Shown in pieces: positions 12,663-48,480 of a stretch of 64,000 nt of DNA (its first letter is position 1; every line of letters begins with the position of its first letter). The stretch comes from Candidatus Chisholmbacteria bacterium (GTDB lineage Bacteria > Patescibacteriota > Microgenomatia > UBA1400 > Chisholmbacteraceae). The notes under the pieces are model-generated. The model saw only the letters and a program-made list of their open reading frames with translations, had not been told where the DNA came from and searched no databases. Made by a program: the position numbers and the translations under genes. The DNA lies in NCBI GenBank assembly GCA_963704905.1, contig CAVPHZ010000002.1, positions 634-64,633 of the forward strand, written 5' to 3'.

Positions 12663-13035
12663 GCAGTGGTGTTTCTTCTTGAAGAGCCAAAAACAGGCAA
12701 TTGACTCATCATGAAGGATGGTGGTGGGGATAAACTACGATCTTTACGTATATACTCCGCCAGTTTACACGTATGTTTGGGATCACATGATCTATTGGTA
12801 TGCAAGAGAACAGTTATGATAATCTACCAAATGATTATGGATATAGAGATCTCCAGAGGCTGAATAATTTTTATTTATTAATCGAACCAGATGACAATAC
12901 AAGACAGAATTGACGGATGGAAAGGTAACTTTACCAGTGAAGGTCAATCTACTCAAACCTGGCATCTCAACAGTGGCATAACCATAGAAAAATGGGAAGC
13001 AAATTCAAAGACAACTGAAGAGATACGCTAATCAC
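12663..13035 (+). promoter_or_regulatory. only sizeable non-coding gap in the window; presumed promoter/5' leader for the downstream YfhO-like operon
   Basis: About 370 nt without a convincing ORF, AT-rich, sitting between a pseudogene and a run of ATGA-coupled genes. No confident -35/-10 pair could be picked out by eye. Confidence 0.3.
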
Positions 13036-21153: not shown

Positions 21154-22895
21154 ATTCTTTACTCAAGCGTCATTGGGCATTCATCGTCATTGTCTTTCTG
21201 ACAATTCCAGCCATGCTTCCATTATTCAAATCTGGATTCTTTCCCATACATGATGATCAACAGGTGGTTCGATTATTTGAACTGGATCGATCGCTTGCCG
21301 CTGGCCAATTTCCTGCCCGGTGGGTTAAGAATCTTGGCTTTGGATTTGGTTATCCATTATTTATTTTTTATCCACCTTTCATCTACTACCTTGGGGAAAT
21401 ATTTCACCTTGGTTTGGGAACAGGATTTATCGATTCAATAAAATTGGTCTTCGCAGCCGCATTTATTGGGGCAGCATATTCTATGTATCTTTGGGTAAAA
21501 GAGCATTTCGGTAAAGTACCGGCAATTGTTGCCGCAGCATTGTATACCTACGCGCCATATCATGCAGTTGATGCATATGTAAGAGGTGCGCTTGCTGAGC
21601 TCATGTCGTTTGTCTGGCTACCTGTAATTTTACTCGCTACAGATCGGTTAATCACAAAAAAACAAAAGCACTATTGGCTGTGGCTGGGAGTTTTTCTCGC
21701 ACTTCTGATGATCACGCATAATCTTATCTTTCTACCATTTTTCCCACTCTTTCTGATTTACGCTGGCTTTCTCCTTCTAAAAACAACTAATAAAACACCC
21801 CATATACTACATACTATTTACGCTATACTCTTAGCCCTTGGACTCAGTGCCTTCTTCTGGATTCCAGCACTTATTGAAAAGCAATACACGTTGGTAGATT
21901 CAATCTTGCTTTCAGAACTGGCCAGTTACAAACTACATTTTGTTGAGTTACAACAACTATGGAACTCTCTTTGGGGATTCGGCGGCTCAACCGCCGGTCT
22001 CTTAGACGGTCTATCGTTTAAAATTGGTAAACTCCATGTAGTTCTTTCAATATTCTCGGTAGCTGTTTTGGGAGTTTACTACAAGCAGACGCGAGAAAAA
22101 CCAATAACATATTCTGTATTTATTGTCTCAATTCTTACTCTCCTAAGTGTATTCCTCACAACTGTGTTTTCTCAAGTCATCTGGGAAATAGCTAGTCCAC
22201 TGCAATTCCTCCAATTTCCCTGGAGATTCCTGACATTTATCGTTCTTGGTTCTGCATTCCTCTCAGCCGGTTTTATTTATGCCTTCGAGATCATACTCAA
22301 AAACTCACTCGCAACACTTGTCCTAGTGATTACGGTTCTTATTCTTTTATTCATTCCAAACCTCAAACTCTTTGCACCCCAGTCATATCTTGATGTAACT
22401 GATAGCTATTACACATCAGATGATTTCATTAAATGGAGAATCAGCAAAACCAGTTTTGAATTTGTACCAAAAGGAGTTAAAACAACTACGGAATATCAAC
22501 AACTTGAAAATAAAGAGATCACTCAGGTTGCAATAAGCGAAAATGAAATTCGAAAAACAGCATATGAAGTTCTCAGCGGAAATGTTGAAGTAAGTATTGT
22601 CCAAGATAATCCCGGAAATATCATACTAGAAACAAAATCAAGCCAAGAAAGCCAAGTTCAGCTCAATACATTTGATTTCCCTGGCTGGTCGGTACGATTG
22701 GATAGGGAAAATATTCAGCACAGTTCTCAAAATGATTTACATTTGATACGGGTAAATATTCCTGACGGTGAACACACGATTGAAGCAAGATTCTCAGAAA
22801 CCCCAGTAAGAAAGCTTTCAGACCTCATAACTCTCTCATCTCTTGGTATTTTCTTCTACTTTTTATTTAATGAGTACTTACTTAATAAGAAGTGA
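21141..22895 (+). CDS. GT-C-like polytopic membrane protein, divergent YfhO-related family (paralog of 18436/53800)
   Basis: SGFFPIHDDQQVVRLFELDRSLAAGQFPARWVKNLGFGFGYPLFIFYPPFIYYL...YTYAPYHAVDAYVRGALAE, with C-terminal FDFPGWSVRLDRENI. Confidence 0.6.
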   Translation: MEKVNSLLKRHWAFIVIVFLTIPAMLPLFKSGFFPIHDDQQVVRLFELDRSLAAGQFPARWVKNLGFGFGYPLFIFYPPFIYYLGEIFHLGLGTGFIDSIKLVFAAAFIGAAYSMYLWVKEHFGKVPAIVAAALYTYAPYHAVDAYVRGALAELMSFVWLPVILLATDRLITKKQKHYWLWLGVFLALLMITHNLIFLPFFPLFLIYAGFLLLKTTNKTPHILHTIYAILLALGLSAFFWIPALIEKQYTLVDSILLSELASYKLHFVELQQLWNSLWGFGGSTAGLLDGLSFKIGKLHVVLSIFSVAVLGVYYKQTREKPITYSVFIVSILTLLSVFLTTVFSQVIWEIASPLQFLQFPWRFLTFIVLGSAFLSAGFIYAFEIILKNSLATLVLVITVLILLFIPNLKLFAPQSYLDVTDSYYTSDDFIKWRISKTSFEFVPKGVKTTTEYQQLENKEITQVAISENEIRKTAYEVLSGNVEVSIVQDNPGNIILETKSSQESQVQLNTFDFPGWSVRLDRENIQHSSQNDLHLIRVNIPDGEHTIEARFSETPVRKLSDLITLSSLGIFFYFLFNEYLLNKK

Positions 22896-24427
22896 AAAAG
22901 TCTCGAAATGCAAAGCTACTCCCTCAAGAGCAGAAGCTCAAAAAGATCATTATAGTAAGTTGTGGTTTACTTCTAGTAGTCACCTTCTATCTTCATGCTC
23001 GACTGATAGTAATCAATGCTCCAATTGAACTCAGAGAAAGTGCAACTGTTCTTACCACCAGTGCATTACTCAAAGGCATCAACCCATTTTCGCTGGAACA
23101 CACACCGGAATTTATTAATGTACACGGAATTCTATACAACCTTGTTGTCTACCCGTTTGCTGCATTCTTCGGATCTACTTTTTTACTCCATCGTAACGTT
23201 TCTGCTTTTTTTATCTTCGCCTCAACTGTTTTGATTTATTTGGCGATATTGAAGGAGAGTCATTCTTCTTGGCTAGCATTTACAGCATCAGTTTTCATAT
23301 ATTCCCAGATCGTAATTGGCACACCGATTGGGATGTCAGGAGGTTTTGATGTGGTTTCACGACCGGATTCACTTGGAATGTTTTTGTTTTTAGCCAGCCT
23401 GCTCATACCATATTGGTTAAAGTTCAGTAATAGAGGATTAATAGTAGGTTTAACACTTGGAATATTGGCGTTTTTTGCAAAGCCGTACTTTATTCTCGGA
23501 CTTGTCTTTCTAGGCATTTACCTGTTTCTCTTCAATGCAAAGAAGACAGGTCTGATATTTTCACTAGGCGGAGTAGCGCTATTCATATTCGTTGCATGTA
23601 TCGTACAGTATTATTTTGAAACCTATTTTTTTAATGTTGTCCTCATCCATCATGGTATTCGTAGCTGGAGCTTTCCACATCTCATCAGCCAGATTAAGAC
23701 GATAGTTGTGTGGAATGGAGCACCATTAGCCGTGCTCATTTTGTGGCTAACGCAAAAGAAAGCAGCAAGAGTAAAAATTGACTATTTTTCATCAGCGCTG
23801 GTTTTTTTTACGATTATAACTGTTACGCTTTTCGGACCGCACATGGGAAATGCGATGAGCTACTTCACTCACCTCATCACACCTTTTCTGCTTATCTGGG
23901 TTTTTTCCAACATCCAAAATCCTCTATTCAACAAAGATCGCTTGTTTTTATATTTCCTGATAATCGTAAACGTAGGCATAGTGGGATTTGCAGCTACCTC
24001 ATACTATCCAAAAACTCAGATAAATAAGGCAGAGTGGAAGTGGTGGGAACAGCGGTTGAAAAAAAGTGAGAAAATATTTAACTCTTCAGCAACAGCTCAC
24101 ATAGTATTTGAGCAGAATAAGCAGCTCTATGATAATGGCCATTCTGAGTATCTAAAATATGGTCTTGAGACAAACGACAAACTTATGCTTGTACCAAGCG
24201 CAAGAGCTAAGCTGGAAGCGTATACAACTGATATACAGGGTAAAATTCACAGTCAGTTTTTCGACCTCGTTATCATCGGCGAAAATAGTTTTCCGGTCTT
24301 TTCCCGCCAAGAACTTGCCAAGACATATCAACTCGAAGACACGCGCCGAATCACCATGTACAAACAATCTTGGCTAGAAGAACTGTGGATTCCAAGAATC
24401 GATACAGAGGAGGTTAGTGAGAAATGA
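22892..24427 (+). CDS. polytopic membrane protein, uncharacterised (possibly another GT-C-like protein); GTG start
   Basis: 511 aa with about 12 hydrophobic segments and a roughly 150-aa hydrophilic C-terminal domain. No family signature recognised. GTGA overlap with the upstream stop. Confidence 0.5.
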   Translation: MKKSRNAKLLPQEQKLKKIIIVSCGLLLVVTFYLHARLIVINAPIELRESATVLTTSALLKGINPFSLEHTPEFINVHGILYNLVVYPFAAFFGSTFLLHRNVSAFFIFASTVLIYLAILKESHSSWLAFTASVFIYSQIVIGTPIGMSGGFDVVSRPDSLGMFLFLASLLIPYWLKFSNRGLIVGLTLGILAFFAKPYFILGLVFLGIYLFLFNAKKTGLIFSLGGVALFIFVACIVQYYFETYFFNVVLIHHGIRSWSFPHLISQIKTIVVWNGAPLAVLILWLTQKKAARVKIDYFSSALVFFTIITVTLFGPHMGNAMSYFTHLITPFLLIWVFSNIQNPLFNKDRLFLYFLIIVNVGIVGFAATSYYPKTQINKAEWKWWEQRLKKSEKIFNSSATAHIVFEQNKQLYDNGHSEYLKYGLETNDKLMLVPSARAKLEAYTTDIQGKIHSQFFDLVIIGENSFPVFSRQELAKTYQLEDTRRITMYKQSWLEELWIPRIDTEEVSEK

Positions 24428-25449
24428 GTAAGCTTTCAATCTGGGCAAATCTATGTCCAAGAAAGTTATTTTGGGAACTTCGTCAACTTGATGACACACC
24501 CGCTTCAATCAAGCCATGGTGGAAACAAACACAGATCCTCTATAAATGTCTTAAGCTGTTAAAAAACATTGGTATTGATGGTTTGCGTCTCAATATATTT
24601 AATCTGGAACTAACATCAGATGGAAAGCGAATACACTGGAATCGGTTAGAGAAGATCTTAGAAATGACCAGTAAACTAGGGTTGAAGATCGACTATTGTC
24701 TCGGGCCATTTCAATATCCTCAATGGCCAGGCATTCGTCTCCCGGAAAAGATACTTTCTTACTGTGATGGAAGATTAACTCTTGATGAGGTAGATGTCAT
24801 TAAAGAATTTGGTCTGAAATTTCTTGCATTGCAACTGAATCGTCTTGGAAATGATAAGAGAATTTCAAGTTTTTACTTGGGGAACGAATGGCCAAATCGT
24901 CAAGAGATAGAAGGAACTAAAGGCAAGTATATCTCAATCTCCAAAGACTTCATGTTGAAATCAGCAGAACTTTATAAAAACGTAACGAATAAACCAATAA
25001 TCATGAATACCAATATTGACGCAGGTGAAACAAAAAAACTCATAGAAGTTTTTTCTCCTTTTATAGATCTTCTGAGATCACAATTATGGATAGGTCTAGA
25101 TATTTACCCTTCCAGAGAGAACCTTCTGCATCATCCAAAGATATGGTGGCACCGAAAAAGAGGGAACTATATGAGCTCGATAGGAAGGCTCAAAGATGAA
25201 CTCACAAAGAACTTACTCTTTTCTGAAGTTGAAGCCCAACCATGGGGAAAAGGAGAATCATGGGTTGAATATTTCAAGTTAAAGATGGAAACCTACACCA
25301 AGAAAGATTTTAAGAATACAATGAATAACATTATTATCCCCTCGGGATTGGAAAAAACCACACTCTGGGGTGCAGAATTCTGGCTCCTCAGTCATTTTCT
25401 AGGCTTCAACTGGCCACTGAGGATAATTAATGAACTGACATCAACTTAA
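24424..25449 (+). CDS. soluble hypothetical protein, possibly TIM-barrel clan GH-A-like glycoside hydrolase
   Basis: No TM segments or signal peptide. Contains LGNEWPN (reminiscent of the GH-A acid/base 'NEP' motif) and a later EVEAQPWG. This is a weak, motif-only inference. ATGA coupled. Confidence 0.4.
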   Translation: MSKLSIWANLCPRKLFWELRQLDDTPASIKPWWKQTQILYKCLKLLKNIGIDGLRLNIFNLELTSDGKRIHWNRLEKILEMTSKLGLKIDYCLGPFQYPQWPGIRLPEKILSYCDGRLTLDEVDVIKEFGLKFLALQLNRLGNDKRISSFYLGNEWPNRQEIEGTKGKYISISKDFMLKSAELYKNVTNKPIIMNTNIDAGETKKLIEVFSPFIDLLRSQLWIGLDIYPSRENLLHHPKIWWHRKRGNYMSSIGRLKDELTKNLLFSEVEAQPWGKGESWVEYFKLKMETYTKKDFKNTMNNIIIPSGLEKTTLWGAEFWLLSHFLGFNWPLRIINELTST

Positions 25450-25461
25450 ATTCAACACTTT

Positions 25462-26970
25462 TTGAAATGCTACAATAGTTTCATGCAGGAACACACCCCT
25501 GAAGATCGCCTTCTGGAAGAAATCGATATTGAGGAAGTGAAGCATAGGTCTGTAAAAGGCGTCGTTGCCTTAGCTGGTCGAACTGGTTTTCTTCAGACAC
25601 TGACACTTGTAGCAACCTTCATGCTCACAGTATTTCTTTCCCCTCAGGAGTACGGTATATTTTTTGTGGTCTCAGCAGTAGTTAATTTTCTCATCTATTT
25701 TTCCGACATTGGTCTTGCAGCAGCGCTCATTCAAAAGAAAGAAAGTATTGAAGAGGATGATCTCGCTACAACCTTCACTATCCAACAGATGATGGTAGTA
25801 ACCCTTGTTGTAATTTCTCTTTGGGGCTCAGCACACATAGCAGGTTTCTATCAGTTGAGTCCTGGTGGTTTATCGCTCCTCCGTGCTTTGATCGTTGCAT
25901 TTTTCTTATCATCACTCAAAACAATTCCATCAATTATTCTTGAACGTAAACTTCAATTTAATAAACTAATAATTCCTCAAATTGTTGAAAATATTGTTTT
26001 TTATTCGGTAGCCGTCTACTTTGCCTGGCAAGGAAAGGGAGTTGAAAGTTTTACTGTAGCAGTTCTGCTCAGAGGATTATCGGGGTTGTTTGTTATGTAT
26101 CTCCTCCAACCATGGAGGCCAGCCTTCGCTTTCAAGAGAAAATCTGCCAAACAACTCCTGTCTTTTGGTGTTCCCTTTCAGGCCAATAGCTTGCTTGCAC
26201 TGGTAAAAGATGATTTACTCACAGCCTATTTAGGCAGAGTACTGACACTTGCTGAGGTAGGTTTTATCGGATGGGCACAGCGCTGGGCGCTAACTCCATT
26301 ACGGTTTTTCAGCGATAGCATCATCAAAGTCACCTTCCCAGCCTACTCACGGTTACAACACGAAAAGGAAGCACTAAAAAAGGCAGTAGAAAAATCCATA
26401 TTTGCAGTTGCTACAGTTGTCTTCCCATCCGTAGTTGGGTTAATAACCATTGCACCGGCAATGATTCAAATTATTCCCCGATATGAAAAGTGGCAACCTG
26501 CACTTCTATCACTAACTCTTTTTGGAGTGAATGCACTCTGGTCTTCAATTTCTACCACCCTTACCAATACGCTCAATGCAACCGGGCACATCAAAAAAAG
26601 CCTGATGCTCATGGTAATGTGGACGACGTTGACATGGGTGTTAACACCCGTACTTATAGCAGTAGTCGGATTCAATGGTGTTGCGTTGGCCTCAGCATTA
26701 ACAGCCACGTCCTCAATCGTTGCCATTTATCTCGTCAGAAAGATTGTCCAAATTGAGATCATGCCCAACATTACCGCACCGATCATTTCTACCGCAATGA
26801 TGGGCGCTCTCGTATATGCGCTTACGCCAGTACTAGCCTCTTCATTAGCTAGAATCGGTCTATTGATACTGACTGCTGTTATACTGTATGCGTTTTTAAT
26901 GATGTTGTTTGCGGGCAAAAAAGTGCTTCAAGAATTTGCTTTGGTTAGGAATTATTTAAAGACTAAATGA
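25462..26970 (+). CDS. Wzx-like polysaccharide/oligosaccharide flippase (MOP superfamily, Polysacc_synt family)
   Basis: 502 aa with about 12-14 TM segments; the N-terminal region VKHRSVKGVVALAGRTGFLQTLTLVATFMLTVFLSPQEYGIFFVVSAVVNFLIYFSDIGLAAALIQ is typical of Wzx/RfbX-type exporters. Confidence 0.75.
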   Translation: MKCYNSFMQEHTPEDRLLEEIDIEEVKHRSVKGVVALAGRTGFLQTLTLVATFMLTVFLSPQEYGIFFVVSAVVNFLIYFSDIGLAAALIQKKESIEEDDLATTFTIQQMMVVTLVVISLWGSAHIAGFYQLSPGGLSLLRALIVAFFLSSLKTIPSIILERKLQFNKLIIPQIVENIVFYSVAVYFAWQGKGVESFTVAVLLRGLSGLFVMYLLQPWRPAFAFKRKSAKQLLSFGVPFQANSLLALVKDDLLTAYLGRVLTLAEVGFIGWAQRWALTPLRFFSDSIIKVTFPAYSRLQHEKEALKKAVEKSIFAVATVVFPSVVGLITIAPAMIQIIPRYEKWQPALLSLTLFGVNALWSSISTTLTNTLNATGHIKKSLMLMVMWTTLTWVLTPVLIAVVGFNGVALASALTATSSIVAIYLVRKIVQIEIMPNITAPIISTAMMGALVYALTPVLASSLARIGLLILTAVILYAFLMMLFAGKKVLQEFALVRNYLKTK

Positions 26971-27875
26971 AAATATCGGTAGTAATCACCGCTCATAACG
27001 AGGAAAAGATGATTGAGGATTGCCTCAAGTCTGTAAACTGGGCAAATGAGATTATTCTCGTAGATAACGAATCAAGTGACAATACTGGCACAATTGCGAA
27101 AAAATTTACAGATAAAATATTCACTCATAAAAACGATCCAATAAATTTGAATGACAGCAAAAACTTTGGATTTACTAAGGCTTCCGGAGATTGGATCTTA
27201 AGTATAGATGCGGACGAACGAATTAGTCCTGAACTTCACAAAGAGATAATCCAAAGACTCATGGGCGCTCCTGACTATGTCGATGGCTATCTTATACCAA
27301 GAAAAAATATCATCTTTGGAAAATGGATTAAGCATGGTCTGTGGTATCCAGACCACCAACTGAGACTATTTAGAAAAGGTAAAGGAAAATTCCCAAGCAA
27401 ACACAACCACGAACTTCTTGAAGTTAAGGGTCAGACATTAGAACTTAAACAACACATCGTCCACCTCAACTACACCTCAGTAGATCAATATCTTAACAAA
27501 ATCGCTTATTACTACTCTGACAATGAAGCTGAACAATACCTCAATTCTGGGAAAAAGCTCCAGTGGTATGATGCTATTCGAATGCCAGCTTCAGATTTTC
27601 TCCTTAATTTCTTCGCCAGAAGTGGGTACAAAGACGGTTTACATGGGTTAGCATTGAGTTTACTGCAGTCGTTTTACATGTTCATTGTGTTTGCTAAAGT
27701 TTGGGAAAAACAAGGATTTTGGGAATACAATAGTAAAGAATTTCTTGAGGATACAAAAAAAGAATTCATTTCAAAAGGAAAAGAATTGCGGTACTGGATC
27801 AGTCGAACAAGGGAAGAAAATAGCGGCGATATTGAACGACTACTGTTGAAAGTCAAACGGAAACTACTTCCATGA
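26967..27875 (+). CDS. GT2 glycosyltransferase, WaaE/KdtX-like subfamily
   Basis: ISVVITAHNEEKMIEDCLKSVNWANEIILVDNESSDNTGTIAKKF...WILSIDADERISPEL. Paralogous to the 36140 and 55548 genes. Confidence 0.8.
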   Translation: MKISVVITAHNEEKMIEDCLKSVNWANEIILVDNESSDNTGTIAKKFTDKIFTHKNDPINLNDSKNFGFTKASGDWILSIDADERISPELHKEIIQRLMGAPDYVDGYLIPRKNIIFGKWIKHGLWYPDHQLRLFRKGKGKFPSKHNHELLEVKGQTLELKQHIVHLNYTSVDQYLNKIAYYYSDNEAEQYLNSGKKLQWYDAIRMPASDFLLNFFARSGYKDGLHGLALSLLQSFYMFIVFAKVWEKQGFWEYNSKEFLEDTKKEFISKGKELRYWISRTREENSGDIERLLLKVKRKLLP

Positions 27876-29014
27876 GTAGCCGAAGGGCATACGGAGTACT
27901 TCTCTTAATCATTACTCTTTTCTTTCTTTCATACCTTGTACAAGGACTTGGATTTTTATATGGAGATAACTTGGGTCAGAGAATTCCAGGCATATATTTT
28001 TGGAAAAATGAAGTAACCAGCGGACGATTACCACTTTGGAATCCATATATTCTTGGGGGATTACCTTTTCTCGCAGATCTTTCTCATAACGCGCTTTCAC
28101 CGACCAATATTGTCTATCTAGTAATGTCAGTTCCCTATGCTATTACCGCGTTAACAATAATCTACATCGCCATCGCAGCTTGTGCAACCTACGCGTATGT
28201 ACATAGCGTAACCAACAAAACGCTGCCGAGCATGTTTTCTGCGATTACATTTGCCCTATCAGGTACTGTAATCGCATCAGTAAATGACATCAACTCTTTG
28301 CAGGGTATTACACTTGTTCCGCTTGTGTTGTATGGAGCTCATCGTTTCACAGAAAAAGCAAACAATACCAGAGCATTAATACTTATCTTTGCATTAGTAT
28401 TTCAATTTTTATCCTCACATCCACAGTACAGTTACTACTCATGGATTCTGGTCGCAAGTTACATTGTTGTGTTTGGAACAGGGAAACTGAAAGTAAGAGT
28501 AGCAAAAACATTTGCTGTATTTCTCTTTACTCTCGGACTAATCGCCGTGCAGCTCTTACCTTTTTTAGAGCTTGCTCGAGAGTCATATCGTCCGCAAACA
28601 AGTGAGTTCGCAGCCCAAAATCAACTCAAAATCATTGAACTGCCATCATTTATACTCGCTGATCTATTCGGATCGTGGAGAAGTGGTTCATCTTGGGGTC
28701 CAGGAGCACAGTTAGAAACAGGTCTGGCAAATTCTGAGGGGTATCTTGGCATCCTACCGCTTTTGTTTGCGGTTATCGCAGTCTTAAAGAGGAAATCGAA
28801 ACGGACAAAGTATTGGGTTGTAGCAGGACTCATTGCACTTCTGCTGAGCCTAGGAAATCAAACACCGTTGTATGAATTAGTAAGGCGAGCCTTACCACTT
28901 TTTTCAAATTTCCGATCACCAATACGGATGTTATCTATCTACAGCTTCTCGGTATCAGTATTAGCTGGAGTAGGCCTTTCAGCAATTAAAGTGGAAAGGA
29001 AAAGGAAGAAATGA
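27872..29014 (+). CDS. YfhO-like GT-C membrane protein, N-terminal half (split gene)
   Basis: GRLPLWNPYILGGLPFLADLSHNALSPTNIVYLVMS is the YfhO loop signature. The protein ends after SFSVSVLAGVGLSAIK, the position where full-length paralogs continue (compare FAASVLAGYGFDAW in the 13036 protein). Confidence 0.7.
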   Translation: MSSRRAYGVLLLIITLFFLSYLVQGLGFLYGDNLGQRIPGIYFWKNEVTSGRLPLWNPYILGGLPFLADLSHNALSPTNIVYLVMSVPYAITALTIIYIAIAACATYAYVHSVTNKTLPSMFSAITFALSGTVIASVNDINSLQGITLVPLVLYGAHRFTEKANNTRALILIFALVFQFLSSHPQYSYYSWILVASYIVVFGTGKLKVRVAKTFAVFLFTLGLIAVQLLPFLELARESYRPQTSEFAAQNQLKIIELPSFILADLFGSWRSGSSWGPGAQLETGLANSEGYLGILPLLFAVIAVLKRKSKRTKYWVVAGLIALLLSLGNQTPLYELVRRALPLFSNFRSPIRMLSIYSFSVSVLAGVGLSAIKVERKRKK

Positions 29015-30153
29015 GGCAGATTCTCTATTCAATTGTAGGCACAACTTTCCAAGCTGTGAAACGCCGGCCAATGACAGAAAGTGCAGCTTTTTCTCAAGAT
29101 AAAGTAAATATTATTCTCGATACGAATATCCAAAATATTTTCATCGTACTCGCTATCATAATCATTGCATTGTATGTGGTTAAGAAAAAACGACACCTGT
29201 TGTACCAAGTGATAGTGATCTTAACAATCATAGATCTCTTTACTTTTTCCAAAGGTAATCTCATCACGTTCCCAATATCAATTACCAGTCTAGAAAGCAG
29301 CGCTTCTAAATGGCTTAAACAAAATCTTGGTAATTATCGATTTGTATCAACAAGCGGGAACTTTCCCTATACAGGCTTGGGTGTGTACTGGACACATTTA
29401 AGAGCCAGGGAGCCGTTTTCTCCAAATAACCTTACAGGTGAAGAGTTAAAGCAATTCACAAGACTAAAAAAAGAACTGACGGTCATTCCGGAGAATCAGG
29501 GTCTCAGGAGTAACATCGCTGATGCATCTGGCTACGCTGCAGCAATACCATCAAATTATCTCCATTTTTGGAATGAAGAGCCAAAAAGCCCCAACACAAC
29601 ATCCATTCAAGACTTAAACAGCAACAAACTTAACTTGGCTGGAGTTAAGTACGTTATTACTGGCTATCCCGATGATTATCTAGCTTCACTCGACTCAGTT
29701 CAATTTGAAAGAGTATTTGGTGAAGACCATGTTCAAATTTACGAAAATCAGGATGTAATTCCTCGAGTATTTTTACTCGATAACAACCAAGATCAATATC
29801 CCGCTCAAATTATTGACTACTCTCCAAATCGAGTACTAATTGAAACCGAACTAGATAGGATTTCTGAACTTGTTTTGACTGACACTTTTTACCCTGGCTG
29901 GACTGCGTATGTTGACGGAGAACCTTCGTCTGTAGAATCTTATGAAGGTGCATTTCGAAAGGTAGCTCTTCCGTTCGGGAAGCACATTGTTGAATTTCGC
30001 TATGAACCCGATTCTCTCAGGTTGGGTGCTATAATTTCAGCAAGCACTGTAGTTTTACTTTTCTCAAGCTTAATATGGCAAAAACAAAAGTCGCAATTAT
30101 CATCCTCAATTTCAAAGGCAAACAAGACACGATCGAATGCCTTCAGTCGCTAA
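29011..30153 (+). CDS. YfhO-like GT-C membrane protein, C-terminal half (split gene)
   Basis: Begins with TM helices and ends with the YfhO-type C-terminal domain DTFYPGWTAYVDGEPSSVESYEGAFRKVALPFGKHIVEFRYEPD. It is in a different frame from the N-terminal half, with an ATGA junction. Confidence 0.7.
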   Translation: MRQILYSIVGTTFQAVKRRPMTESAAFSQDKVNIILDTNIQNIFIVLAIIIIALYVVKKKRHLLYQVIVILTIIDLFTFSKGNLITFPISITSLESSASKWLKQNLGNYRFVSTSGNFPYTGLGVYWTHLRAREPFSPNNLTGEELKQFTRLKKELTVIPENQGLRSNIADASGYAAAIPSNYLHFWNEEPKSPNTTSIQDLNSNKLNLAGVKYVITGYPDDYLASLDSVQFERVFGEDHVQIYENQDVIPRVFLLDNNQDQYPAQIIDYSPNRVLIETELDRISELVLTDTFYPGWTAYVDGEPSSVESYEGAFRKVALPFGKHIVEFRYEPDSLRLGAIISASTVVLLFSSLIWQKQKSQLSSSISKANKTRSNAFSR

Positions 30154-31041: not shown

Positions 31042-31770
31042 ATGGCTAAACAACCTTTCCTCTCACTTATAATCCCTGTATATAACGAAGAAAAGCGGAT
31101 TAAATATGGTCTGACACAGATTTTCTCCTTTCTTAAAAATAAGAAGTTCAGCTGGGAATTAATCATCGTGGATGACGGATCCATTGATAACACAGTTGCA
31201 CTAGCTAAAAAACTCACACTCACAATAAAGACTGTAAAGATACTCAACAGCAACCATCAAGGAAAAGGTGGGGCGCTCAAAAAAGGGGTAAAGAGTGCAC
31301 AAGGAGAGTGGCTCATCTTTTTTGATATCGATATCGCAACCCCAATGGATGAATACAATAATTTCGAAAAATGGATGGGTAGGTTCGATGTCATCATTGG
31401 ATCACGAAAAATGAAAGGGGCGCATATAGAAGTACATCAACCATTTTTTCGAGAATTTGGCGGGAAAGTATTTACCCTACTTACAAACACGCTGGTAACG
31501 AGAAATATTTCGGATGTTACTTGTGGCTTTAAACTCTTTAAAACCAAAATCGCCAAAGATCTGTTCCAGCGCTCAAGGCTCGCAGATTGGAGTTTTGACG
31601 CCGAGATTCTTTACTTAGCGCAAAAAAAAGGTGTGAAAATCAAAGAAGTTCCTGTTCGTTGGAAGGATGACCCTCAAACAAAAGTCAATCTTATGAAAGA
31701 TACCATCGATGCGTTTTATGGGCTTCTTAAAATCCGCTTCAATGACTTCCAAGGTTTGTACGATCGTTAA
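31042..31770 (+). CDS. GT2 glycosyltransferase, polyprenyl-phosphate sugar synthase (Alg5/DPG-synthase-like)
   Basis: LSLIIPVYNEEKRI...LIIVDDGSIDNT...GKGGALKKGV...FFDIDIATP...IGSRKMKGA...CGFKLFKTKIAKDLF. Confidence 0.88.
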   Translation: MAKQPFLSLIIPVYNEEKRIKYGLTQIFSFLKNKKFSWELIIVDDGSIDNTVALAKKLTLTIKTVKILNSNHQGKGGALKKGVKSAQGEWLIFFDIDIATPMDEYNNFEKWMGRFDVIIGSRKMKGAHIEVHQPFFREFGGKVFTLLTNTLVTRNISDVTCGFKLFKTKIAKDLFQRSRLADWSFDAEILYLAQKKGVKIKEVPVRWKDDPQTKVNLMKDTIDAFYGLLKIRFNDFQGLYDR

Positions 31771-32503
31771 GTTTTCTGCTAAGACAAACAATAGATAATC
31801 CAAACGGCATACGAATGTGCTGGAGAACCGACGCCTCAACGGTGGTGATTTGAACGAGCAACCAATTAATTGATTTTGGGACCTCAATAAAATCTGAACG
31901 CTGCTTCATAGATTTTCCGAAAATTGACTTAGCAACTCGAACAATAATTGCGACAGGAACCAAATACCAATAAAAATATGAGCTCATCTCAACCTCAAAT
32001 CCAGTCTCCTTCAACTTTGCAACAAGAGCACGACGACGATATCGCCGTTTATGTCCCAGTACTTCATCCCAATAAGTCCATAGCCATGGGTAAGCAGGTA
32101 CAGTGAGTACAAATCTGCCTCCCGGTTTTAAAACTCTCTGAATCTCAGAAAGAATGAGCCTATCGTTATCCAAATGCTCAAGTACGTCGAGCATTGTGAC
32201 AGCGTCGAATAGTTCATTTTGGAACGGAAGCGGCTTAGTGAGATCAGTGGCTGCGACATTTGAAAATCCACGTTTTTTACAATACGATATCGCCTTTGTC
32301 GAGCCGTCAACCCCAAATACCTCTCCAAACCTGGAAAAATCTTTCATCATCATGCCTGTTCCACATCCAATATCTAGAAATCTTGGATCTTGTAGTGAAT
32401 TGAGATATGAGTCAAGCATACGAAGAATAAGACGGCGCTTCGCCACATGCCACCAATAGGTGGACTCAAGCCGGTACATTTCATCAAAAAGATCGCTACG
32501 CAT
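31739..32503 (-). CDS. class I SAM-dependent methyltransferase
   Basis: This is the only substantial minus-strand gene. It carries SAM motif I FLDIGCGTGMMM, VFGVDGS, FDAVTMLDVLEHL and LKPGGRFVLTVP. Its 3' end overlaps the 3' end of the + strand GT2 at 31042..31770 by 32 nt (convergent overlap). Confidence 0.85.
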   Translation of the reverse strand: MRSDLFDEMYRLESTYWWHVAKRRLILRMLDSYLNSLQDPRFLDIGCGTGMMMKDFSRFGEVFGVDGSTKAISYCKKRGFSNVAATDLTKPLPFQNELFDAVTMLDVLEHLDNDRLILSEIQRVLKPGGRFVLTVPAYPWLWTYWDEVLGHKRRYRRRALVAKLKETGFEVEMSSYFYWYLVPVAIIVRVAKSIFGKSMKQRSDFIEVPKSINWLLVQITTVEASVLQHIRMPFGLSIVCLSRKLNDRTNLGSH

Positions 32504-32554: not shown

Positions 32555-34480
32555 ATGCAAAACCTGTTGATAAACATACTGCTTTTTATGTCTGTCTTTT
32601 GCGTTTTGTGGTGGTTACCAGGACTCTATTTGTTGCCTAAGGACAAAAACCTCAAGACTTTAGATAAAAGTTTTCTTGCCGTAACACTCGGTGTTAGCAT
32701 TTATTCTTTAGTTATATATATCGTTCGTCTTGTTGGATTGCCATTTTGGATTGGATATTTTCCATTTTTATTCTTGACATTTCGGTTCTTCCGGACAAGA
32801 ACCATTTCACTTTCAAGATTAAAAATGAAATCCGTGACTGCGACCTTTATCATGATCATGCTCATTTCAGCAGCTATCCAAGCCCTGGTGCTCACTAGAA
32901 GTGCCAATCTGACATCAGAAGGAATGAGCTTTATTGAATTGTCCGCCCATGACTCTCTGCAACATGTGTATCTGATCAATGAACTAAAGGATCATTTTCC
33001 TCCTAGGCATCCCGGATACTCACCGATAGAGGTTAAAAATTATCACTTTCTTATCGATGTCACGCTCGCTTCAATCTCAAAATATCTTCCATTTTCAACC
33101 TTTCATCTGTATTACAGAATTCTTCCCCTAGCCGTATCAGCTCTGTTTAGTATCGGTGTATTTACATTTATACGTCATCTGACGAAATCTCCATGGCTTG
33201 CCAACGCAGCCGTAGTACTTACAATATTTTCTGGAAACGCTGCATGGGTTATGAAGTTTTTCCGAGGTGATGAATTCACGGTTAGCGCAAATTCCTTCAT
33301 GCTCGATCCGGTGATAGATCTTCTGCAAAATCCCATGGCAGTGTTGGTCTTTCCTCTCATGATTGCCGGAAGTTGGACGCTGCTGAACCTGGAAAAAAAG
33401 CCAAACCTCAAATGGAACTTCATTGGTGCAATCCTCTTGGGCGTAATGATTGGATTTAAAGCCTGGGGTGGCACGCTAATGTTAATTGGTCTTGGAGTAC
33501 GTGCTATCTACCTAAGTGTATGGAGAAAGAGAATGGATGGTTGGGTCACGACTTTCTTGACATTGGGTGTTGCGCTAACCATCATGCTTCCTGTCTATGA
33601 TCGGCAAACTGCAGCCAACCCGATTTTCACACCGGGCTGGCTCCTGAAACGAATGGTAGAGGATCATGATAGGTACAATACGTTAAACGATTATTTTCTC
33701 GAACAGCATTACAGAGAAAAAGGAAATCTTCCGCGTTTGATTCAGCTCAACGTAAAACAGCTCGCAATCTATACTTTTGGAAATCTGTGGATAAAGTTCC
33801 TGGGACTGGTGTATTTTGCAAAACTTATAAAAAAACCATCTGGGTTTGGAGTATTTCTTCTCACTGTTACAGTCTTTTCACTTTTTCTGCCAGTGCTGTT
33901 TAACCAGGGCAGAATGTCATATGACATCATCCAATTCGGACCATATGCGTTGGTGTTGATGTCACTATTTACAATAGTATCTCTGCCTTTGATATTAAAG
34001 CGATTTTCATCAATAACTTCCGGCATCATTGTTGGTATACTCTTGCTCCTTTCGTTTCCCTCAAACATCAAAAGTATTCAAGATAGATATAGAGCTGACA
34101 GCTTCCTAGTGACAAATCAAGAGCTCGAGGCATTTGAATATATAAAACAACATACAGATTTAAGCAGTACTCTCATGGTATATCCATCTCATAGAAATGA
34201 TTCAAGTCTGCTCGTGGCTGCATTCACTGGTCGTCCCACCTATTTTTCAGGCAAATCATTTGCGCGAATCACCGGTGAAGATTATGAAGGAAGGGCAATT
34301 CGCTGGAAGGAGTTTTTCAACCAGGCGAACCCTGGAGAACGACAACAAACTCTTAAAGATGGCTCTATTGGCTATCTCTTACTTACTTCTGAAGAAGAAC
34401 ATACGTTCAACAAAACCGGACTAAATCTTAAAACAGTATATTCAAATGAAGAAACGATCATCTACCAAATCCAAAATTGA
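32555..34480 (+). CDS. polytopic membrane protein, GT-C-like, unrecognised family (paralog of 34446)
   Basis: About 640 aa with at least 12 TM segments. N-terminal loop signature ELSAHDSLQHVYLINELKDHFPPRHPGYSPIEVKNYHFLIDV is shared with the downstream paralog. The start was chosen at internal Met 32555, because the ORF-track start at 32447 would overlap the divergent minus-strand methyltransferase. Confidence 0.6.
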   Translation: MQNLLINILLFMSVFCVLWWLPGLYLLPKDKNLKTLDKSFLAVTLGVSIYSLVIYIVRLVGLPFWIGYFPFLFLTFRFFRTRTISLSRLKMKSVTATFIMIMLISAAIQALVLTRSANLTSEGMSFIELSAHDSLQHVYLINELKDHFPPRHPGYSPIEVKNYHFLIDVTLASISKYLPFSTFHLYYRILPLAVSALFSIGVFTFIRHLTKSPWLANAAVVLTIFSGNAAWVMKFFRGDEFTVSANSFMLDPVIDLLQNPMAVLVFPLMIAGSWTLLNLEKKPNLKWNFIGAILLGVMIGFKAWGGTLMLIGLGVRAIYLSVWRKRMDGWVTTFLTLGVALTIMLPVYDRQTAANPIFTPGWLLKRMVEDHDRYNTLNDYFLEQHYREKGNLPRLIQLNVKQLAIYTFGNLWIKFLGLVYFAKLIKKPSGFGVFLLTVTVFSLFLPVLFNQGRMSYDIIQFGPYALVLMSLFTIVSLPLILKRFSSITSGIIVGILLLLSFPSNIKSIQDRYRADSFLVTNQELEAFEYIKQHTDLSSTLMVYPSHRNDSSLLVAAFTGRPTYFSGKSFARITGEDYEGRAIRWKEFFNQANPGERQQTLKDGSIGYLLLTSEEEHTFNKTGLNLKTVYSNEETIIYQIQN

Positions 34481-36143
34481 TATAGAGGTAAAAGCACTTA
34501 CACCGGCCGAAAAATTAGTTCTCGGATTTGTGTTAGTGGTAGCGAGCGTAACTCAAAGCTGGCATTTTTTCACAGCTTGGAAAATGAAAGCAGAAACCAT
34601 TGAGTTCAGCCAGTTTCATGATGCACTATGGCACATAGCGCTTATTAAAGAACTCTCCCGATCGTTCCCACCTCAGCATCCGGGGTTAGCAGGAGAAATA
34701 TTGAGTAATTATCATTACCTTACGGATCTTCTCCTTGCGATAGTTCATAAGTTCACAACCATTCCTGTCGAAACGCTGTATATTCACGTCGCTCCGCCAC
34801 TCGTGTCTGCTTTTTTTGCCTTTGCAGCATTTAAACTCGCTCAGCTGTTAAGCAGGTCAAATGAAACTGCAATCATAGCAACAATATTTACCGTGTTTAC
34901 TGGAAGCGCAGCATACTTCATTCCCGTGTTTTTAGGCAAAGGGGTAGCTTGGACAGCCAACTCATTCATGCTTGACCAGCCCTTTGATCAACTCACCAAT
35001 GTGCATACTGTCCTTGGCTTTGCGATGTTTTTGACTGGAACGTTTTTTCTGGTGCGTTTCAACAAATTCAGCAAATTATCAGACGGAATCCTTGCCGGCA
35101 TGATAATTGGTCTTGCAACAGGCATAAAAGCCTATGCAGGAGCAGTAGGAGTCGCAGCTTTGATGATCACGTTAGGTCTGGAACTAACCATATTGAAAAA
35201 GCGAAAAATGATATTGCCATCAGCAATTGCAGCAAGTATATTTTTACTCCTGACCGTATTTACTTCCTCATCAAATCAATCTCCACTCCAATTCGCCCCT
35301 GGATGGATCCTCACCAAGATGGTCGAAGATTCTAACCGCTTCTATTACGAAAAGTGGTCACAGCTGGAAGCTCATTATCGTGAAGCTGGAAATATCATTC
35401 GCGTAGCACAAATCAAAACCCAGGAGCTGGTCCTGTATATTATTGGCAACCTCGGTGTCCGTTTGATTGGCTTTATCTGGATCATAAAAAAATTGAAAAA
35501 ACTCAAACACATAAAAGCTCACGAAATATTCCTGATCGTAACCATCATCATTTCTCTGACCATTCCACTTATCTTTGTCCAACCGGTGTCGGTCTACAAT
35601 ACCATTCAATTTAGTCCATACGCGCTCATGATACTCAGTATCGTAGTTGTTCTAGAGACGGTAACTTGGAGAAAGAATATTCTCATGTTAACTCTTCTCT
35701 TCCTGCTGTCGCTACCCACAACCCTTCAGACATTTCTGATTCGATTAAAACCTGAGTACATCATGAGTAAAAATGAATACACAGCCCTAAAAGCTATCGA
35801 AAATACACCCGAAGATGCAGTATTTCTCACACCTCCAACAGGAGAACACTTCGTATTTATGAAAGTTCCGGGGATAGGTGGAAGAAGAACCTACTTTTCA
35901 GGAGAAACGTTCGCCATACTCACGGATACTGATTACCAGCTTCGTAAATCCATAAACGAGGAATTTTTTAGAGAACTGACTGATGACCAGAGGCGTAATC
36001 AAATACTCGAAGATGCTAAAATTACACATATCTATACTGATGAGAGTACATATACCGAGTTTCTTGAAGAATTAGAGGAAGGAAGATTTCCGATCAAAGC
36101 AATCTATACGCAGGATAAATTTGCTATTTTTAAGCGCATATGA
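34446..36143 (+). CDS. polytopic membrane protein, GT-C-like, unrecognised family (paralog of 32555)
   Basis: FHDALWHIALIKELSRSFPPQHPGLAGEILSNYHYLTDLLLAIV aligns with the 32555 protein; multi-TM core plus a hydrophilic C-terminal domain. Confidence 0.6.
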   Translation: MKKRSSTKSKIDIEVKALTPAEKLVLGFVLVVASVTQSWHFFTAWKMKAETIEFSQFHDALWHIALIKELSRSFPPQHPGLAGEILSNYHYLTDLLLAIVHKFTTIPVETLYIHVAPPLVSAFFAFAAFKLAQLLSRSNETAIIATIFTVFTGSAAYFIPVFLGKGVAWTANSFMLDQPFDQLTNVHTVLGFAMFLTGTFFLVRFNKFSKLSDGILAGMIIGLATGIKAYAGAVGVAALMITLGLELTILKKRKMILPSAIAASIFLLLTVFTSSSNQSPLQFAPGWILTKMVEDSNRFYYEKWSQLEAHYREAGNIIRVAQIKTQELVLYIIGNLGVRLIGFIWIIKKLKKLKHIKAHEIFLIVTIIISLTIPLIFVQPVSVYNTIQFSPYALMILSIVVVLETVTWRKNILMLTLLFLLSLPTTLQTFLIRLKPEYIMSKNEYTALKAIENTPEDAVFLTPPTGEHFVFMKVPGIGGRRTYFSGETFAILTDTDYQLRKSINEEFFRELTDDQRRNQILEDAKITHIYTDESTYTEFLEELEEGRFPIKAIYTQDKFAIFKRI

Positions 36144-36937
36144 ATAAGATCTCATGCATCGTCCTTACATATAATGAACAGGAATACCTTCCAGGATGTC
36201 TGCAGTCACTCGGCTGGGTTGATGAAATTGTCATTATTGATGCTGGATCGGCTGACGATACGCTGAAGATAGCCGAGAAGGCCGGTGCGAAGATAGTTAA
36301 AAATTCATGGCACGGGTTTCCAAATCAACGAACTATTGGCGCCAAACATGCCAGCGGTGAGTGGATTCTGTACATCGATGCTGACGAGCGAGTCTCTTCA
36401 AAACTAAAAGAAGAAATTCAAGTACTTTTGAGAAATAATCCAGCATTTCATTCGTATAAAATACCTCATAAAAATTACATTCTGGGGAAATGGTTGAAAT
36501 ACGGAGGTTGGTATCCTGAATATCAACACCGACTCATGAAAAGAAGTGAATTACATAGATGGAACGGAGAACTCCATGAACATCCGATCATAGATGGAGA
36601 AGTAGGCATTCTCGAAGGAGAAATCATTCATCTGACCCATCGAGGAATGGAATGGATGCTGAATAAAACAATTCGCTACACCAAAATGGAAGCCGATTTA
36701 CGTTTTCAAGCCAATCACCCAAAAATCAAGGCTCATCATTTCTTCTCATCAACACTTCGGGAATTTTGGTATCGAGCAATAACCAAGAACGGTTGGAAAG
36801 ATGGAATTATCGGCTGGATTGAAATATTTTATCAGTCTTTTAATCACTTTCTGATTATGGCATGGCTATGGGAGATGCAGAGAAAAGAAGATATTCACAC
36901 CACATACAAAAAACTAGATGAGGAGTTATCAGAGTGA
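36140..36937 (+). CDS. GT2 glycosyltransferase, WaaE/KdtX-like subfamily
   Basis: ISCIVLTYNEQEYLPGCLQSLGWVDEIVIIDAGSADDTLKIAEKAGAKIV...WILYIDADERVS. ATGA coupled. Confidence 0.82.
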   Translation: MNKISCIVLTYNEQEYLPGCLQSLGWVDEIVIIDAGSADDTLKIAEKAGAKIVKNSWHGFPNQRTIGAKHASGEWILYIDADERVSSKLKEEIQVLLRNNPAFHSYKIPHKNYILGKWLKYGGWYPEYQHRLMKRSELHRWNGELHEHPIIDGEVGILEGEIIHLTHRGMEWMLNKTIRYTKMEADLRFQANHPKIKAHHFFSSTLREFWYRAITKNGWKDGIIGWIEIFYQSFNHFLIMAWLWEMQRKEDIHTTYKKLDEELSE

Positions 36938-47121: not shown

Positions 47122-48480
47122 GTGAAGAACTACCTTCTCTTACTCTTGATGTTGCTTGCCTATAGTGCTCTTAGTTTCATCCTCATGCTGCGGGACGATT
47201 GGGCAATAAAAACGATTGGTGACTTATACCCACAACTAGAGACCACACTTCAATCGGCTCGCCAATATGGATTATCCCATCATCTCAATACAACACCAAC
47301 CTTGATGTATGTTCTCATTATTGCTTTCGCTTTCTGGTTTTATTTCAAAGTAGTAAATGGAAAATGGATAAAAAGCCAGTCTGCTAGAAGGATTGTACTC
47401 TGGTCATTGGTATTACATTCAGTTGTAATCATTTCCTACCCAGCTTTATCAACCGACGTATTTGATTACATTCTTCAAAATCGTGTGAAATTTGTTTACC
47501 AAGAAAATCTATGGGTGATGCCAATCATCTCCTACCCAAACGACCAGATGATCAATCTTGGTAGCTGGCAAAGAGTCGCGAGTGTCTATGGCCCCACCCA
47601 CCACTTTTTCGCCGCCGGCGCCCAAATTATTGGAGGAAGTGATCTATTTGGTAATATCTTGATGTTCAAGGAAATTGCTGTGATCTTCTCACTCATCACA
47701 ACAATGATGTTAAGCCACCTGATTCAAGAAGACAAAATGCGTAAACTCGCACTGTTTGCCATGAATCCATTGCTTATCATCGAAACAGCGGGGAACGCGC
47801 ACAACGATATCATCATGGTCGCATTCATGATCGCTGCGCTTATCGCTTTCAAAAGGAAACGATTCGTCATAGTTGGCGCGTTGTTGTCTCTCAGTACCCA
47901 GGTAAAACTGTATGGAGTTGTACTCACACCATTTTTGTTAATTCTACTCATGAGGAAAAAAGAGTATGGACATGCAGCACTAACATTGATTGGCTTGTTA
48001 GTAACAACAATGATTGGAGTGGCAGTCATGGGACCGCAAGCAGTAGCAAATTATCAACATCTCATGAAGTGGGTGTTTACCTTAAAACTTAATTCTCTTC
48101 CTAACCTCTTACACGTTCTTCCAAATTGGATGTTCGTATTCCCATTTATGATCATTGCCATACTTGGAGTAAGAAAAATAAAGTCACTCAGCAACGTCAT
48201 ACAGACATATATTGGTCTCACACTGTTGTACCTCATGTTTGTTATACCATTGTATTGGGCTTGGTATGTAATTTGGTACTTACCATTTTTATCACTTATA
48301 AAAAAAGCAAGTCTCATCAAAGTAGGAATAACATTAAGTCTGACATCTTCTTTGCAGTACGCCATACTCTTTCTATCACATCGTTTTAATTATGAACACA
48401 TCATCTGGACAATTATCATATACATCTTTTTAGTCGTTCCTCCAATTGGAGTGTATGCATTTACCAGACATGAAAAGTAA
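47122..48480 (+). CDS. GT-C-like polytopic membrane protein, DUF2029/GT87-like (GTG start)
   Basis: STDVFDYILQNRVKFVYQENLWVMPIISYPNDQ...VYGPTHH...NPLLIIETAGNAHNDIIM; paralog of the 6580 and 48446 genes. Confidence 0.6.
   Translation: MKNYLLLLLMLLAYSALSFILMLRDDWAIKTIGDLYPQLETTLQSARQYGLSHHLNTTPTLMYVLIIAFAFWFYFKVVNGKWIKSQSARRIVLWSLVLHSVVIISYPALSTDVFDYILQNRVKFVYQENLWVMPIISYPNDQMINLGSWQRVASVYGPTHHFFAAGAQIIGGSDLFGNILMFKEIAVIFSLITTMMLSHLIQEDKMRKLALFAMNPLLIIETAGNAHNDIIMVAFMIAALIAFKRKRFVIVGALLSLSTQVKLYGVVLTPFLLILLMRKKEYGHAALTLIGLLVTTMIGVAVMGPQAVANYQHLMKWVFTLKLNSLPNLLHVLPNWMFVFPFMIIAILGVRKIKSLSNVIQTYIGLTLLYLMFVIPLYWAWYVIWYLPFLSLIKKASLIKVGITLSLTSSLQYAILFLSHRFNYEHIIWTIIIYIFLVVPPIGVYAFTRHEK

Follow-up and report, generated by a model that had tools for sequence, protein, structure and literature searches.

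Two adjacent membrane proteins in a glycan-synthesis island

The window analyzed here is a stretch of 64,000 nucleotides from a contig of Candidatus Chisholmbacteria bacterium (CAVPHZ010000002.1, 508,777 bp). Nearly all of it (positions 1-64000) is one plus-strand island of glycan-synthesis genes. Within it, the span 32555-36143 consists of exactly two plus-strand open reading frames (ORFs), named ORF A and ORF B (Table 1). An original prediction, made from the letters of the sequence, described them as adjacent paralogs of about 565-640 amino acids (aa) that share an unusual loop motif. It placed them where the strand polarity changes, and it suggested an undescribed family resembling the glycosyltransferases of structural type C (GT-C).

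The two ORFs encode 641 and 565 aa. In BLASTP they present 28% identity over 579 residues (E 8e-63). This is far beyond chance, so they are true paralogs, as predicted. In a neighbor-joining tree, ORF B falls inside a clade of short forms only, and ORF A belongs to a separate clade of long forms. It means that the pair derives from an old duplication and not from a recent tandem copy. The end of ORF A and the start of ORF B share 35 nt, and the last 4 nt of ORF B are also the first of the next gene, which encodes a glycosyltransferase of family 2 (GT2). These short overlaps are typical of a single operon. The change of polarity was also found: the methyltransferase gene preceding ORF A is the sole minus-strand ORF among the 49 ORFs of at least 150 aa.

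Which start codon ORF A uses is uncertain. Its open frame extends upstream to 32447, and the NCBI product (P0161, 630 aa) starts at 32588. A start at 32447 would run into that of the divergent methyltransferase, at 32503. We favor the ATG at 32555 over the annotated 32588, because the homologs have 645-648 aa and the first helix (residues 2-26) is confidently modeled.

A large family without annotation

Neither ORF A nor ORF B has a match above threshold in Pfam or NCBIfam. Below threshold, DUF6798 gives a weak signal on residues 452-469 of ORF B (E 0.0033). PMT_2 matches weakly in 4 of 15 close homologs (best E 1e-5). Likewise, 76 diverse members of the family show no convincing match to any Pfam model, with scattered single-member signals only. 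The family profile finds no PDB sequence at E<=10. A literature search on GT-C families in the candidate phyla radiation (CPR), Patescibacteria and Chisholmbacteria returned nothing relevant. We use the word undescribed on the basis of Pfam (2025 copy), NCBIfam (2026), PDB, public protein names and this literature search. The original prediction could not place the loop motif in PMT, ArnT, YfhO, STT3 or DUF2029, and the 0/76 result in Pfam agrees with it.

A word-indexed search of 5.8 billion proteins retrieved 15-22 relatives per query, and all the named ones are 'hypothetical protein'. Repeated with the profile of 76 sequences, it contributed almost nothing more, and ten diverse members looked up by cluster yielded neither a name nor a taxon. 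The family is nevertheless large. In an exhaustive profile search of 1.84 billion representatives, 1051 clusters at 50% identity matched with E<=1e-30; with the threshold relaxed to E<=1e-10 and E<=1e-3, the number of matches rose to 2029 and 4579. The best 150 matches align over essentially their full length. Most members have 640-660 aa, like ORF A. A minority has ~560 aa, like ORF B, and some are fusions of 1000-1640 aa. In the long-form representatives, the match to the family begins near residue 90-100.

A genome scan with an alignment of closer sequences retrieved no more than 5 loci. Named genome loci with the family belong to two Candidatus Chisholmbacteria metagenome-assembled genomes (MAGs) and one 'Patescibacteria group' MAG. 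Another member, with 36% identity to ORF B, lies on a contig of 3086 bp (L002, CAYLWN010000071.1) binned as 'uncultured Gammaproteobacteria'. This assignment is doubtful and probably a binning error; alternatively, it could signal a wider distribution.

The loop signature and the conserved residues

The loop motif reads HDSLQHVYLINELKDHFPPRHPGYSPIEVKNYHFLID in ORF A and HDALWHIALIKELSRSFPPQHPGLAGEILSNYHYLTD in ORF B. In ORF A it takes the form HD..L.H...EL...FPP.HPG...NYHFLID. No other ORF of 100 aa or more in the window matches a relaxed regular expression for this motif, in line with its description as distinctive and shared by the two proteins. A hidden Markov model (HMM) of the 76 members also recognizes only ORF A and ORF B as members in the window (E 8e-201, 2e-185). 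The next-best matches are other GT-C-type ORFs, with E 1e-5 or weaker. For the whole family, the signature of this first extracytoplasmic loop (EL1) can be written as [H/R]-D-x-[L/M/I]-W-H ... F-P-P-x-[H/N]-P-G ... N-Y-H-[Y/F]-x-x-D.

Conservation was measured in the 76 diverse members and is given in ORF B numbering. In EL1, the conserved residues are D59 (99%), P79 (92%), N88 (93%) and H90 (96%). D59, equivalent to D133 of ORF A, is Asp in 75 of the 76 members and Glu in the remaining one. It is the only near-invariant acidic residue of the family. The His that precedes it is less conserved (H in 51/76, R in 17/76). The other invariant or near-invariant positions are F174 and N185 in EL2, K228 (100%) in the outer turn between transmembrane (TM) helices TM5 and TM6, and P285 (100%) and W287 in EL4. 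They continue with G334, N335 and R339 in TM8, with Q388 (100%), F389 and Y392 in the loop preceding TM10, and with R500 in the C-terminal domain. Both paralogs retain all of them, with a single change, R339 to K in ORF A. This retention suggests that ORF A and ORF B are both probably functional.

The catalytic Asp or Glu of GT-C enzymes opens the first EL1 helix, as in PglB (D56), ArnT (D55) and the DE motif of Pmt1. In the predicted model of ORF B, D59 takes this position.

Predicted structure and topology

We modeled both proteins with AlphaFold2 without templates, from alignments of 65 sequences for ORF A and 15 for ORF B. The model of ORF A reached a mean predicted local distance difference test (pLDDT) of 96.2 and a predicted TM-score (pTM) of 0.94. 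For ORF B the values were 89.6 and 0.89. The helices of the models were taken as membrane spans. ORF A has 14 predicted TM helices, followed by an extracytoplasmic alpha/beta domain at the C-terminus. More precisely, three extra helices at the N-terminus (residues 2-26, 35-59 and 64-81, all with pLDDT above 90) precede a GT-C core of 11 TM helices. ORF B has these 11 helices and an N-terminus rich in lysine and arginine (K/R).

In ORF B, the loops predicted inside carry 17 K/R in 38 residues, and the short loops predicted outside 6 in 80 residues. This bias puts the motif loop (residues 43-107) on the outer side of the membrane together with the C-terminal domain, an arrangement shared with GT-C enzymes. 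It answers the question posed with the original prediction about the side on which the motif lies. The three added helices would put the N-terminus of ORF A outside. This orientation of the long form is consistent with fusions in which a signal-anchored soluble domain stands ahead of it.

In Foldseek, ORF A matches STT3, AglB, PglB, DPY19 and AftA at E 1e-8 to 1e-6, with TM-scores near 0.45-0.5. Its top match is AftA. The structural scores of AftA, ArnT, Pmt4, ALG12 and DPY19 are equal to or above those of the oligosaccharyltransferases (OSTs). No transporter and no Wzy, WaaL or SEDS (shape, elongation, division and sporulation) protein appears among the significant structural matches. The module formed by TM1, a long EL1 with two helices and TM2 is superposable on solved GT-C enzymes, and the first extracytoplasmic loop holds a conserved acidic residue (D59/D133). 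The C-terminal domain of ORF B presents the fold of the C-terminal globular domain of an archaeal OST, without WWDYG. From these models we assign ORF A and ORF B to the GT-C fold with high confidence, and the suggestion of a GT-C-like family was correct. On the same models, no solved GT-C family is singled out as the closest, and the family looks like an independent branch.

Relation to known families

We compared the family with the other GT-C-type proteins of the window by hhalign. The PMT_2-type paralogs align with 94.8% probability (E 4.9e-8, 339 columns), and the PTPS_related-type paralogs with 72%. In the latter alignment, HD59 stands opposite 'HDD', right behind TM1, and FPPQ opposite 'FPxR'. 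The YfhO and GT87 paralogs give 4.9% and 0.3%, and neither YfhO (PF09586) nor GT87/DUF2029 has a Pfam match in ORF A, ORF B or the 76 members. At the sequence level, the profiles point to a remote homology with PMT_2/ArnT-type enzymes, which appear as the nearest relatives.

Nevertheless, the family differs from all these enzymes. For PMT_2/ArnT (PF13231; CAZy GT83/GT39 type), 0/76 members reach the gathering score, and the homology is detected only between profiles. The PMT_2 paralogs of the window have DE...YKPP in EL1, whereas the family has HD...FPPxHPG...NYH. Most members add the three N-terminal helices, and they have no MIR domain. Compared with the eukaryote-type PMT (GT39), the 76 members lack a MIR match and have H/R-D in loop 1 in place of DE.

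The motif WWDYG defines STT3, AglB and PglB (GT66). It is absent from ORF A, ORF B and the family consensus, and no DK/MI or TIXE/SVSE motif is recognizable. Identity with GT66 is 9-13%, none of the 76 members has PF02516, and the profile has no match in PDB sequences. The C-terminal globular (central core) domain is the likeness between both families. AftA (GT85) and the Emb/Aft/PimE set show no sequence similarity to the family (8-13% identity). AftA is mycobacterial and the host here does not belong to the mycobacteria; genes for decaprenylphosphoryl-5-phosphoribose (DPPR) synthase or DprE are absent from the window. Wzy, WaaL and SEDS polymerases and ligases are set apart by the lack of structural similarity. 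The family of ORF A and ORF B is most aptly regarded as new at the sequence level but part of the known GT-C superfamily. Its marks are an EL1 signature not shared with the others and, optionally, three further helices at the N-terminus.

The three-component extracytoplasmic glycosylation systems, GtrA/GtrB/Gtr* and that of Citrobacter GT136, offer another comparison. GT136 was founded in 2024 as a GT-C family without sequence similarity to existing families (PMC11127046), and the family studied here would likewise be a GT-C family of this kind. The locus shares the logic of these systems, that is, a polyprenyl-phosphate sugar synthase (GT2) and a GT-C enzyme acting after export. The GT2 upstream of ORF A is GtrB/DPMS/ArnC-like, although below equivalog cut-offs. 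As to a dedicated small flippase of the GtrA or small multidrug resistance (SMR) type, no such gene adjoins the pair, GtrA-type domains are fused to GT2s in the window and in L006, and the associated flippase is Wzx-type. Those systems are add-ons of three genes, whereas the pair is part of a very large island with multiple GT-C genes. We also considered the Wzx-like protein as a flippase for monophosphate donors, by analogy with the 'MATE' flippase of the Citrobacter system. The analogy finds no support there, because the 'MATE' protein is a four-helix EmrE/ArnE-like transporter (PMC11127046).

Gene neighborhood and related loci

The table lists the features of the pair and its main neighbors.

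Table 1. Positions of ORF A, ORF B, their parts and the neighboring genes in the window.
Feature	Position	Strand	Remarks
ORF A (XA), long form of the family	32555-34480	+	641 aa from the ATG at 32555
ORF A N-terminal extension	32555-32824	+	~90 aa, three TM helices; absent in ORF B, present in most family members
EL1 signature of ORF A	32948-33058	+	Residues 132-168; candidate catalytic Asp133
ORF B (XB), short form of the family	34446-36143	+	565 aa; 11 TM helices plus C-terminal domain
EL1 signature of ORF B	34617-34727	+	Residues 58-94; candidate catalytic Asp59 opening the first EL1 helix
ORF B C-terminal extracytoplasmic alpha/beta domain	35742-36140	+	Residues 433-565
Wzx-type flippase	25462-26970	+	Polysacc_synt_3 (E 1.4e-52); five genes upstream of the pair
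GT2, candidate polyprenyl-phosphate sugar synthase	31042-31770	+	242 aa; GtrB/DPM1-like
Methyltransferase dependent on S-adenosylmethionine (SAM)	31739-32503	-	Methyltransf_11 (E 7.5e-22); divergent from ORF A
Downstream GT2	36140-36937	+	265 aa; Glycos_transf_2 (E 1.2e-19); conserved partner

The best PDB relatives of the upstream GT2 are GtrB (5ekp, 8.6e-15), the DPMS of Pyrococcus (5mlz, 4.7e-14) and ArnC. In NCBIfam it scores best with dolichyl-P hexose transferase, PgfS, AglJ, ArnC and PpgS, without reaching the equivalog cut-off of any. A GT2 of this type lies directly upstream of the family gene in six loci: the window and five related loci with upstream sequence (L001, L003, L004, L005 and L008). 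The downstream GT2 type comes next after the family gene in L001, L004, L005, L007 and L008; in L003 the distance is ~1.6 kb. In the window, this GT2 is translationally coupled to ORF B. Its closest solved relatives are the protein or peptide glycosyltransferases GmaR (3.7e-14) and SunS/ThuS, and not enzymes of the lipopolysaccharide core. So, of the neighbors named in the original prediction, the lipid-sugar synthase upstream fits what was found, and the 'WaaE-like' label of the GT2 downstream could not be verified.

The inverted methyltransferase gene is also present in L001, L004 and L008; it was not detected in L005. At its divergent junction with ORF A, a scan for promoters and terminators found sites no more frequently than in shuffled controls. 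Orthologs of the Wzx protein occur in L004, L005, L009 and L010.

A gene order running from Wzx to PMT_2 recurs in L001, L003, L004, L005 and L008, with protein identities of 40-75%. It begins with Wzx, a GT2, a split YfhO, a GT2, the DPM1-like GT2 and the minus-strand methyltransferase. The family gene or genes (A, with or without B) follow, then a GT2, a methyltransferase, a GT4 and, farther on, YfhO, a GT2 and PMT_2. The window, L001 and L003 carry both paralogs, whereas L004, L005, L007 and L008 have the long form alone. L006 (23-24% identity) has two copies of the family gene amid DPM1-like GT2s, a GT2-GtrA fusion and three sugar-nucleotide epimerases. It also has GT-C genes of the PMT_2 and MptA_B types, and its GT2 fused to GtrA_DPMS_TM adjoins the family gene.

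In five proteins (P0131, P0063, P0111, P0179 and P0181; L009 6663-9848, L012 252-3449) an N-terminal extracytoplasmic domain of ~450 aa is fused to the family protein. This soluble domain gives only a weak match, to DUF3863 and PDB 3lm3, and has no homolog in the window. The Wzx gene stands directly ahead of such a fusion in L009. In P0131 (1639 aa), Wzx, the soluble domain and the family protein form a single chain. L012 presents the fusion followed by orthologs of the GT2s, GT4 and YfhO of the window. In L011 and L013, the family gene lies among PMT_2 genes.

Proposed function

The results above establish the fold and topology of the family, its conserved residues and its gene linkage; the enzymatic activity, with its donor, its acceptor and the roles of individual residues, is inferred. 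We favor, with moderate confidence, that the members of this family are GT-C enzymes moving a sugar from a polyprenyl-phosphate donor, at the outer face of the membrane, to the glycan (or a protein) of the island. At this face, ORF A or ORF B would bind the lipid-linked sugar, with the near-invariant D59 (D133 of ORF A) as putative catalytic acid/base or metal ligand. K228, which is invariant, and R339, which is conserved, may hold the lipid phosphate, and D59, K228, R339 and Q388 are proposed to cluster in one pocket. The acceptor of the sugar would be a surface glycan, or possibly a glycoprotein, made by the enzymes of the surrounding 64-kb island. The likeliest donor would be the product of the adjoining upstream GtrB/DPM1-like GT2. 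Such a supply would follow, by analogy, the logic of a synthase plus a GT-C enzyme known from extracytoplasmic glycosylation systems (PMC11127046).

Some observations weigh against this proposal. The closest structural neighbors span users of both donor classes, so the fold fits either donor class. STT3, AglB and PglB use diphosphate-linked oligosaccharides, and ArnT, PMT, AftA, DPY19 and ALG12 use monophosphate-linked sugars. The six loci with the upstream GT2 are syntenic relatives and not independent observations. The compact or distant versions L009, L010, L011, L012 and L013 have no adjacent DPM1-like GT2; their recurring partners are a Wzx-type flippase, cytoplasmic GT2 and GT4 enzymes, YfhO and PMT_2. 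Finally, the window has ~20 GT-C genes for about six candidate lipid-sugar synthases, which makes a pairing by adjacency uncertain.

An alternative activity, which we regard as unlikely, is that of a non-canonical oligosaccharyltransferase, ligase or polymerase. In that case, the cytoplasmic GT2 and GT4 enzymes of the island would build a polyprenyl-diphosphate-linked oligosaccharide, Wzx would flip it, and the family protein would move it whole to a protein, a cell-wall acceptor or another repeat unit. Just as improbable, in our judgment, is its most specific form, a new bacterial class of OST or glycan ligase, similar to STT3/AglB and with an OST-type C-terminal domain, that lacks WWDYG, is fed directly by Wzx and attaches the oligosaccharide to the envelope or to proteins of CPR bacteria, whose island here has no recognizable Wzy or WaaL enzymes. 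The structural resemblance to STT3/AglB, the AglB-like C-terminal domain and the fusions with Wzx speak for a transfer en bloc. However, WWDYG is missing from both proteins and from the consensus, and D59 is a single near-invariant acidic residue. The monophosphate-donor enzymes (AftA, ArnT, Pmt4, ALG12 and DPY19) match as well as the OSTs or better, with AftA as the top match of ORF A. The sequence affinity to PMT_2/ArnT-type proteins and the DPM1/GtrB-like GT2 immediately upstream in the lineage of the window also argue against it.

Alternatively, a PMT-type protein O-glycosyltransferase would use the same polyprenyl-phosphate-sugar donor to modify Ser/Thr of proteins that are secreted or exposed at the surface (S-layer, pili). 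We give this little probability. The 76 members have no MIR or other Pfam-recognized domain, H/R-D replaces the 'DE' motif of PMT, and the fusions to Wzx and to the weakly DUF3863-like domain point to a lipid-linked or polymeric glycan as substrate. As for pairing in the PMT manner, an obligate heterodimer is unlikely, since many genomes carry a single copy. PIG-U/GAB1 is a subunit of the glycosylphosphatidylinositol (GPI) transamidase that has the GT-C fold without catalysis. That ORF A and ORF B are comparable non-enzymes, whether a GT-C-fold scaffold, a flippase-like protein or a transporter, is very improbable.

Standard annotation calls the members of this family 'hypothetical protein'. 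With the GT-C fold recognized, its more than 1000 sequence clusters gain a testable function. The signature motif and the candidate catalytic residues could be used for a Pfam or CAZy entry. For uncultivated episymbiotic bacteria, the family is one more component of their envelope chemistry. The finding overturns nothing and fits the established pattern of GT-C families, to which new ones continue to be added (GT136; PMC11127046). It is therefore useful and credible, and it will not surprise a specialist.

Other genes of the island

The window encodes ~20 membrane proteins of the GT-C type: eight PMT_2, three PTPS_related, four YfhO, two GT87, one PIG-V-like and the two described here. The genomes of CPR/Patescibacteria are tiny, and an investment of this size is unusually large for them. 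Five DPM1-type GT2s of ~250 aa are present (at 3525, 5829, 31042, 53060 and 59462), and the sole GtrA-like TM domain (GtrA_DPMS_TM) is fused to a GT2 at 2659-3555. The window has one Wzx-type flippase. The island also contains genes of the GDP-mannose-dehydratase/epimerase type, further GT2s, four GT4s and four methyltransferases.

Three ORFs, 22892-24427 (511 aa), 24424-25449 (341 aa) and 48446-49933 (495 aa), have no Pfam match and no hhalign similarity to the family. The 511-aa and 495-aa proteins, sited among GT-C genes, could be additional unannotated membrane enzymes.

The region 11461-13036, between a methyltransferase gene (10593-11483) and a YfhO gene (13036-15342), has no long ORF but fragments in differing frames that resemble membrane proteins. 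One of them (11461-11940) resembles the N-terminus of PMT_2/ArnT, with a K/R-rich tail, a TM helix and 'DQG'. The region has the appearance of a GT-C gene that is frameshifted or decaying.

A split gene of the YfhO type (window 27872-30153) consists of an N-terminal and a C-terminal ORF with an overlap of a few bases. The same split is found at L001 1304-3594, L004 3049-5279 and L005 3626-6024. Its conservation in three other genomes indicates a real two-gene arrangement and not a sequencing error. Finally, a protein of 905 aa (18436-21153) has two GT-C-like halves, with PTPS_related at residues 78-368 and PMT_2 at residues 608-748; two GT-C enzymes may be fused here in tandem.

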